Positions 4,329-5,462 are shown, counted from the stretch's first letter. The stretch is 64,000 bases of DNA from Bacillota bacterium (GCA_009711785.1 VENA01000016.1:217647-281646); one strand, 5' to 3'. Numbers and translations: made by a program. The notes: generated by a model from the sequence alone, not told the origin.

Positions 4329-5462
4329 TTAAAAAGCATTTAATATAATTAATATTATTCCACTTAGGACTAGTAAAAGTAATATAGGTATTGTAATTAT
4401 TGTTTCCCTTCTTACCCCAGAATGGGAGGTAAACGTAGTTGATCCTGTAAAATTCATTGCTAAATAAGCAATTATGGATATTAACAATAAAGAATTCCCA
4501 ATTATCCATAGAAAAGGTTTATCATATATTATAAGCCTATTATTAAATAATAAAACACTATAAATTATTCCTAATAATATACCATTAAATGAAAATATCC
4601 TAAATGGTAAAATTGGAATTAACATAGGAAACAATATAGTTCCTATAAAAATTGCCCCTATATAAGGTACTATATTTATTATACTATCCTTTAATCCATC
4701 TATTAAACTACTTCCTGATAATATATTTAAAAAAAGAAAAAATAATATAATAAAAGGAATATATTTAACTGAGTATACAAACTCTAACGGAGTGACTAAA
4801 AGTCTTTCTTTTAAGTTAAATGTAACTTTTCTCATATCTTTAGTCATTTTATTATTCAAAAATTTATTTATATCCCTTGCTTTAACAGGTCCATAATTTA
4901 TTTTAAAACCTACATATTTAGTTACTTTATACGAACTAACCCCTGGTGCAGAAAGCTGGGGTAATATTAAATTCTTATGGGTAACAAGTTTATCTATTTT
5001 ATGCTTTTTTATTCTATATATTAATTCCTCTGTTGAAAATGTCCCTTTTCCTGCAGCGCACCAAACATTAATTCCTTTAGTATCTAATACTAATATCCAA
5101 ACATCAAGTCTGTCTAAATTTTTTCTTAATTCATCAAAGGTTAACTTATAATTTGAAGTCACTAAAACTTGAGATTTTTCATTTGGATTACCTACTGCAT
5201 AAATTCCAGGTTGTATTTTATAATTATTTCTATTAACTCCTAATCTAACAGCTGCATTTAATAATTTGTCTTTTAAGCTAATAAAAGTTTTTATTCGTTT
5301 TATTAAACCTTTTTTTGTATTTAAATGTCCATCAAAGGAATGTTTAATCCATTTATTATCTATAACTTCATCTTTTTGAGTTATTTTATTTTTTAGTTTA
5401 ACCTCTAAACTAGAGGTATCTTTTTTACTAGTTCAACATGATTTATTAGATTTATCTGTCAT
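4329..5462 (-). CDS. hgcA: HgcA-like corrinoid protein (mercury methylation): N-terminal corrinoid-binding domain plus 5-TM C-terminal domain, with in-frame TGA at 5433-5435 (codon 10, candidate selenocysteine)
   Basis: It carries the cap-helix signature GINVWCAAGKGTFSTEEL and about 5 C-terminal TM helices. The track ORF starts at GTG 5162, but the frame stays open upstream to the TGA. That stretch encodes family-conserved sequence (W..H..G...T..G......YKIQPGIYAVGNPNEKSQVLVTSNYKLTFDELR). There is no in-frame ATG, GTG or TTG between 5432 and 5163. The only canonical start is ATG 5462, preceded by SD GAAGGTGA: MTDKSNKSC-U-TSKKD... Confidence 0.85.
5394..5417 (-). promoter_or_regulatory. SECIS-like stem-loop(s) downstream of the hgcA TGA
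   Basis: Two alternative minus-strand hairpins. One is ACCUCUA-GUU-UAGAGGU (5417-5401). The other is UAGUUUA-GAGGU-UAAACUA (5412-5394). The stems are 7 bp, the apical loops contain G/GGU, and the loops lie 23-32 nt after the UGA. The stems are AU-rich, so stability is uncertain. Confidence 0.4.

Follow-up and report, generated by a model that had tools for sequence, protein, structure and literature searches.

How HgcA can be made from a gene in which a TGA separates the start codon from the conserved domain is the question raised by a 64-kb stretch of Bacillota DNA (64,000 nucleotides, hereafter the window). HgcAB makes neurotoxic methylmercury, and environmental surveys depend on hgcA and hgcB gene calls. 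Here we combine reading-frame analysis, comparison with metagenomic relatives and RNA folding to argue that HgcA is very probably translated from ATG 5462, with the UGA at codon 10 decoded as selenocysteine by way of a SECIS element at 5417-5401, which would provide the protein with a Cys9-Sec10 tail. Selenocysteine forms of HgcA and HgcB are not new, having been described in 2022-2023, and the locus represents a further example.

The proposed hgcA start and the Cys-TGA dyad

Three features on the minus strand delimit the gene and its 5' end:

4329 to 5462, minus strand: hgcA coding sequence read through the UGA, 377 codons plus TAA (from translation and the match to NF040863)
5467 to 5474, minus strand: Shine-Dalgarno sequence GAAGGTGA, read directly and followed by TTAA (4 nt) and ATG 5462-5460
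5433 to 5438, minus strand: TGT-TGA dyad, the codons of Cys9 (TGT 5438-5436) and candidate Sec10 (TGA 5435-5433)

As the original prediction proposed from the sequence, the eight codons that begin with ATG 5462-5460 lead directly into TGT-TGA as codons 9 and 10, after which the frame remains open until TAA 4331-4329. The proposed start is also well placed, with GAAGGTGA lying 4 nt before the ATG and an SD-like GGAGG or AGGTG preceding the corresponding start codon in each of the 12 distinct members of the clade of close relatives described below. Compared with the NCBIfam model NF040863, the 377-residue read-through product scores 391.8 bits (cutoff 275), with profile positions 1-323 of 325 aligned to residues 54-376. 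The HgcA cap-helix motif N(V/I)WCA(A/G)GK is present as INVWCAAGKG with Cys135, W134 and C135 are invariant in an alignment of 27 sequences (A2), and hgcB starts 13 nt downstream of the hgcA stop. The gene combines a single in-frame UGA immediately after a cysteine codon with an N-terminal extension and an upstream start, which is the arrangement of the HgcA form named CU; in place of the pentapeptide PCUGP, the window protein has SCUTS (KSCUTSK).

A simpler account would treat TGA 5435-5433 as a true stop, with HgcA starting at ATA 5384 or GTG 5162 and the upstream 9-codon ORF being separate. The public record of the window gene (P0001) is indeed a 351-residue protein that starts at the ATA codon, the code-11 ORF listing opens the hgcA frame at GTG 5162, 273 nt downstream of TGA 5435, and residues 1-53 of the read-through protein fall outside the NF040863 alignment. 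However, ATA 5384 has no SD within 5-10 nt, the nearest GAGG being 19 nt upstream, and both codons are lost through synonymous change in the 97%-identical relative MES16, where ATA 5384 is ATC and GTG 5162 is GTA. A non-canonical start with its own SD, which the original prediction had named as a possible refutation, is not borne out. Furthermore, because the ORF tool starts at the first ATG, GTG or TTG that it meets, its listing agrees with the earlier statement that no such codon lies in frame between TGA 5435 and GTG 5162. Since the NF040863 match begins at residue 54 and GTG 5162 corresponds to residue 101, a GTG start would cost 47 residues of the conserved domain, in keeping with the claim that this domain begins well upstream of the GTG. 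In addition, the clade preserves the frame, the short peptide that leads up to the TGA and the SD and start of that peptide, with indels in threes only, and we regard a downstream start as very improbable.

Conservation of the dyad in close and distant relatives

A scan of genome contigs returned as its sole match VEND01000097.1, annotated 'MAG: Bacillota bacterium isolate MES16', at 97% nucleotide identity. Both TGAs, in hgcA and in hgcB, are kept in MES16, and its hgcA carries a 3-nt in-frame deletion between ATG and TGA; a literature search on MES16 and the VEND01 MAG yielded nothing relevant. Beyond MES16 the nearest HgcA proteins are about 50-57% identical, and the close clade comprises the window together with 11 further distinct members (L001, L003, L085, L086, L088, L089, L091, L093, L095, L096 and L097), which stem from different samples.

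All 11 of these other members possess an SD and a start codon (ATG, or GTG in L085) followed by 8-12 codons and TG[TC]-TGA. The peptide leading up to the dyad ends in [NKD]-K-[SA]-C and continues past the TGA as (V/I)(I/V)E..SSLEE, while indels upstream of the TGA occur in multiples of three only. Nine clean CU dyads (CUD, CUT and CUP) were identified in a set of 80 more distant metagenomic loci, and most of the others encode HgcA tails rich in CC, CCC or CxC, which are too divergent for residue-exact alignment with the clade. The comparison of N-terminal extensions that had been suggested for the original prediction places the dyad in every close relative fetched, with distant tails being CU or, in most other cases, rich in CC, CCC or CxC.

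The public annotation of these genes is uneven. Among database proteins P0001-P0022 and the calls for loci L001, L003, L085 and L086, the window's own hgcA begins at an ATA codon, whereas the relatives either lack everything up to and including the TGA or show 'CW', and the DNA of the relatives shows that the 'W' in database entries of the type '...NNKACWVIEK...' is a TGA translated with code 4.

The short segment before the TGA could also be a leader peptide, i.e. a 9-codon uORF ending at the TGA, with HgcA produced by termination and reinitiation at the next codon. This would suit L088, L089 and L091, in which GTG directly follows the TGA and gene callers place their start. In the window, however, the codons after the TGA are ACT AGT, and the other relatives have ATT, GTA, GTT or GTC, which are non-canonical starts. 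With GTG in this position in only three clade members, termination-reinitiation is not the general mechanism. It also leaves unexplained the constant cysteine before the TGA, the covarying hairpin downstream and the TGA at a cysteine position in hgcB, and we consider it very improbable. Decoding of the UGA as selenocysteine, in turn, predicts a SECIS element shortly downstream, to which we now turn.

A candidate SECIS hairpin downstream of the hgcA UGA

5401 to 5417, minus strand: candidate SECIS hairpin ACCUCUA-GUU-UAGAGGU with a 7-bp stem and a G-first triloop (from minimum free energy folding and comparative data)

The stem pairs 5417-5411 with 5407-5401 and begins 15 nt past the UGA, so that the UGA is closely followed by a stem-loop with G in its apical loop, as is characteristic of bacterial SECIS elements. 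Folding of the single sequence bears out the proposed hairpin in part: it is the minimum free energy (MFE) structure, at -7.5 kcal/mol, but its stability is at the level of shuffled sequences (z = -1.05, not significant). As the hairpin is unremarkable in energy alone, the case for it rests on comparative data. A search of Rfam gave neither a SECIS nor any other family match to this hairpin.

The hairpin is common to the window and all 11 other distinct clade members, with 6-7 bp, a start 15-18 nt past the TGA and, in most members, the G-first loop GUU, and 12 of 13 folds give it as the MFE structure. Across the 12 distinct sequences, 90.5% of stem cells are paired, compared with 32-57% when the pairing partner is slid, and the covariation score was reached by none of 500 shuffles. 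Three stem pairs show compensatory change in this set: one joins the third position of the codon preceding Ser with that of Glu (U-A/C-G/U-G), another joins those of Ser and Leu (U-A/C-G), and the third lies at the base of the stem (A-U/G-C/U-A). The compensatory C-G/U-A/G-C changes occupy synonymous third positions. Because the conserved peptide SSLE is encoded by sequence that overlaps the hairpin, protein coding accounts for part of the conservation of the hairpin.

Evidence from outside the clade comes from L018, L033 and the CUP..AQ clade, which are CU lineages whose peptides downstream of the dyad are unrelated. In these a hairpin starts 11-20 nt past the UGA, with G as the first or second nucleotide of the loop; the CUP clade has GGCUC-AGKU-GAGCC, L033 has GUCCA-GGA-UGGAC and L018 has GCAGUUG-GGUC-CAACUGC. 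Under a fixed definition of a SECIS-like hairpin (stem of at least 5 bp, loop of 3-6 nt, G in the first two loop positions, start 10-28 nt downstream), such structures occur at 18 of 21 C-TGA sites in hgcA and at 5 of 41 CC sites (Fisher p = 1.7e-8, for sites that are phylogenetically non-independent). Two of the three C-TGA sites without a hairpin, L020 and L028, resemble non-coding upstream read-through more than real dyads.

Two alternative hairpins had been proposed for this segment. Both are present in the sequence, yet only ACCUCUA-GUU-UAGAGGU covaries. The second, UAGUUUA-GAGGU-UAAACUA, is at chance level across relatives and was rejected: 79.8% of its cells pair compared with 78% in shuffles, 83 of 500 shuffles equal it, and its closing pair occurs in the window only, among the relatives compared.

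On the plus strand, the palindrome at 5401-5417 is followed by a T-run and was scored as an intrinsic terminator, which could halt antisense transcription. We rejected a plus-strand terminator here because no plus-strand gene ends at this point and the T-run is not kept in relatives.

A second, probably recoded TGA in hgcB

The neighbouring gene contains the other in-frame TGA, together with the following features:

4056 to 4316, minus strand: hgcB coding sequence read through the UGA, 86 codons plus TAA (from translation and the match to NF040864)
4107 to 4109, minus strand: in-frame hgcB TGA, GVG-Sec70, at the Cys position of GVGC in relatives
4066 to 4084, minus strand: candidate hgcB SECIS hairpin GGCUCACU-GGA-AGUGAGUC, with an 8-bp stem that starts 22 nt past the UGA
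3983 to 4029, minus strand: intrinsic-terminator-like hairpin and T-run after hgcB, read directly

The frame runs from ATG 4316 to TAA 4056 and reads ...AGVG-U-AYAIIKGWLTGSESCC around the TGA, ending in Cys85-Cys86. The second recoded TGA that had been claimed here is in frame at 4109-4107, and the match of HgcB to NF040864 (118.3 bits, cutoff 99; residues 2-86) spans the site. The hairpin and T-run at 3983-4029 likely mark the end of the hgcAB operon; matches to miRNA-precursor families of Rfam at 3975-4036 fall on this terminator hairpin and were discarded as spurious.

The correspondence of Cys and Sec in HgcB is exact (GVGC compared with GVGU), and the Sec form of hgcB is found in 5 of the 12 distinct close-clade loci whose hgcB extends to this position (window, MES16, L088, L093 and L096). 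Although single-sequence folding of the hgcB hairpin is not significant (z = -1.63), equivalent hairpins are present in L088, L093 and L096 with loops GGC, GGC and AGGUA, respectively, and that of L093 shows a compensatory C-G to U-A change. SECIS-like hairpins follow 4 of 4 Sec-type and 6 of 61 Cys-type hgcB sites (p = 3e-4, the sites again being phylogenetically non-independent).

Two premature stops in neighbouring genes of a single assembly would also fit pseudogenes in decay, or assembly or sequencing errors. The original prediction had argued that two adjacent recoded TGAs are hard to explain in this way, and the relatives support that argument: both TGAs are identical in the independent MAG MES16, the same dyad recurs in 11 other lineages, and both frames are otherwise intact and score over the curated family cutoffs. 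We therefore judge decay or error to be extremely improbable as an explanation of the two TGAs, both of which we continue to read as candidate selenocysteine codons.

Among about 70 loci with complete hgcB for which C-terminal tails were compared, five HgcB proteins (L001, L003, L086, L091 and L095) lack any cysteine in the C-terminal tail, where Cys-Cys is considered a hallmark of HgcB, and all five adjoin a CU-type HgcA of the clade; none of the about 60 other loci encodes an HgcB without a C-terminal cysteine. In the close clade, HgcB proteins with a Cys-Cys tail often also have Sec at position 73. Because the cysteine-less tails are phylogenetically clustered, their link to CU-type HgcA is suggestive only. 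It is a speculative and on balance unlikely idea that the Cys-Sec tail of HgcA in the Bacillota clade is the primary Hg(II)-binding arm and could replace the C-terminal Cys-Cys of HgcB; if true, it would represent a modular selenium/thiol relay whose parts are exchangeable between HgcA and HgcB.

Genetic code, selenocysteine machinery and gene neighbourhood

The window, about 27% G+C, is chromosomal and derives from a spore-forming member of the Bacillota, its genes including a Germane domain protein, WhiA, RapZ, DnaE, pyruvate kinase, PFK and MurB. Among its real genes, an in-frame TGA occurs in hgcA and hgcB only: the 47 other large ORFs contain 0 TGA, 113 TGG, 196 Cys and 1,120 Gly codons among 17,588 in-frame codons.

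These counts bear on the possibility that a variant genetic code assigns TGA generally to an amino acid, namely Trp (code 4), Gly (code 25) or Cys. Public gene callers did apply code 4 to the relatives, and none of the 48 large ORFs in the window ends in TGA. The absence of TGA from the 17,588 other codons nevertheless excludes a general reassignment to Trp, Gly or Cys; moreover, the only two TGAs in frame occupy sites that appear equivalent to cysteine, exactly so in hgcB, and a SECIS-like hairpin lies downstream of both. A variant code is thus highly improbable, and site-specific insertion of selenocysteine at the two TGAs remains the reading that we favour.

Stop usage in the window is skewed in its own right, the 48 large ORFs ending in 37 TAA, 11 TAG and 0 TGA, with no TGA stop in small intergenic ORFs either. 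Yet TGA occurs often out of frame, 1,958 times on the two strands together. The lack of TGA stops may result from low G+C, yet they are fewer than expected.

Within the 64-kb window no selA, selB, selD or tRNA-Sec was found: Pfam and NCBIfam scans of all 49 large ORFs returned no SelA, SelB or SelD, ARAGORN detected no tRNA gene anywhere in the 64 kb, and no Rfam family reached threshold. One GTPase gene (5927-7876, minus strand), upstream of hgcA, was considered as SelB and rejected as a TetM/EF-G-like paralogue, its SelB score of 44.9 bits deriving from the G domain only. This TetM/EF-G-like protein is also under the curated cutoffs of its nearer families (tet_protect 455 vs 775; EF-G 361 vs 583).

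Other genes of the neighbourhood include an EFR1-family flavodoxin-ferredoxin fusion (7933-8763, minus strand), also upstream of hgcA, and a 102-residue membrane ORF without a family match between the GTPase gene and hgcA (5595-5903). Further away, tRNA/rRNA uracil-5-methyltransferase is encoded by two tandem paralogues (31978-33354 and 33431-34798, minus strand) and phosphofructokinase by two genes (25740-26960 and 40133-41092, minus strand), one being long and divergent and the other canonical and located beside pyruvate kinase.

Proposed mechanism and significance

From the comparisons described above, we infer that selenocysteine is inserted into HgcA. In the mechanism that we propose, translation of hgcA would begin at ATG 5462 and the 5417-5401 hairpin would act as a bacterial SECIS that recruits SelB with Sec-tRNA(Sec), UGA codon 10 being decoded as selenocysteine to give a 377-residue HgcA. 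A short, probably flexible N-terminal tail carrying Cys9-Sec10 would then precede the corrinoid-binding domain (Cys135) and the membrane domain, while hgcB would be recoded likewise at GVG-Sec70 and its product would end in Cys-Cys. The Cys-Sec tail may serve as an arm for soft metals, by which Hg(II) or methylmercury is captured or handed over. We infer this Hg(II)-binding or hand-over role for Cys9-Sec10 from chemistry and by analogy with the C-terminal Cys-Cys of HgcB and with the SAO system and its CU motifs; the tail is probably accessory and not catalytically essential.

Sec-form hgcA is mis-annotated by standard gene callers, through truncation to the ATA in the window and through truncation or a false Trp in relatives. 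As the discovery of HgcA and HgcB as selenoproteins has already been published, the added value of this work is incremental, and consists of comparative SECIS evidence (covariation, and the enrichment of hairpins at C-TGA over CC sites) together with the finding that PCUGP is not universal, both of which are useful for building better detection models.

Comparison with known systems

Both the CU extension of HgcA and Sec73 of HgcB were reported by Haft & Gwadz (bioRxiv 10.1101/2022.07.06.499078; J Bacteriol 2023), and a 2026 review lists HgcA (NF040863, 'CU') and HgcB (NF040864, 'GVGU') among prokaryotic selenoproteins (PMC13188914). Like the described HgcA selenoprotein form, the window gene has an extension upstream of the earlier annotated start that can be reached only by reading one UGA as selenocysteine, with Cys directly before Sec, CC-rich non-Sec homologues and an adjacent hgcB. 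In the earlier survey, PCUGP was invariant in 20 mostly deltaproteobacterial-type HgcA proteins (Haft & Gwadz, bioRxiv 10.1101/2022.07.06.499078), whereas the window has KSC-U-TSK and its clade [SA]C-U-[VIT][IV]E. With SCUTS in the window, CU[VI][IV] in the clade and CUP or CUD in other metagenomic lineages, PCUGP is lineage-specific and not a family-defining feature. The window protein differs further in that its tail has only 8 residues before the dyad, and, apart from its own species-level MAG, no homologue comes closer than about 57% identity.

For HgcB, the Sec form accounted for 17 of 266 proteins in the Haft survey, at the position of Cys73 in ND132 numbering (bioRxiv 10.1101/2022.07.06.499078). 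The window protein resembles this form (NF040864, GVGU) in having GVG-U-AYA at the Cys73 equivalent and a Cys-Cys C-terminus; there is no substantive difference, and in the window Sec-HgcB shares its operon with Sec-HgcA. N-terminally His-tagged recombinant HgcA of ND132 is active in E. coli lysates (PMC11588087), and the construct presumably corresponds to the annotated ORF without a Sec tail. If so, the activity of ND132 HgcA implies that methyl transfer can proceed without the tail.

The bacterial SECIS consensus of Zhang & Gladyshev from 2005 reportedly consists of a stem-loop that lies within the coding sequence directly behind the UGA. Its apical loop is said to be 3-4 nt long, to carry G in the first two positions and to lie about 22-28 nt past the UGA. 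The candidate hairpin of hgcA shares these features of placement and loop with the consensus; its binding by SelB is putative, and Rfam offers no covariance model that matches it.

Beyond the mercury methylation genes, vicinal Cys-Sec pairs are also found in the CU proteins of the SAO system (SaoL, SaoB and SaoC), where they are proposed to bind soft metal or organometallic species. Their folds and genomic context are unrelated to those of HgcA, and the window yielded no SAO genes. Gram-positive SECIS elements are described as typically having a perfect 7-bp stem that closes a triloop containing G (Haft & Gwadz, bioRxiv 10.1101/2022.07.06.499078). The SECIS of SaoC, with its perfect 7-bp stem and GGU triloop, has the same architecture as the hgcA hairpin with its GUU loop, and resembles the 8-bp, GGA-looped hairpin of hgcB.
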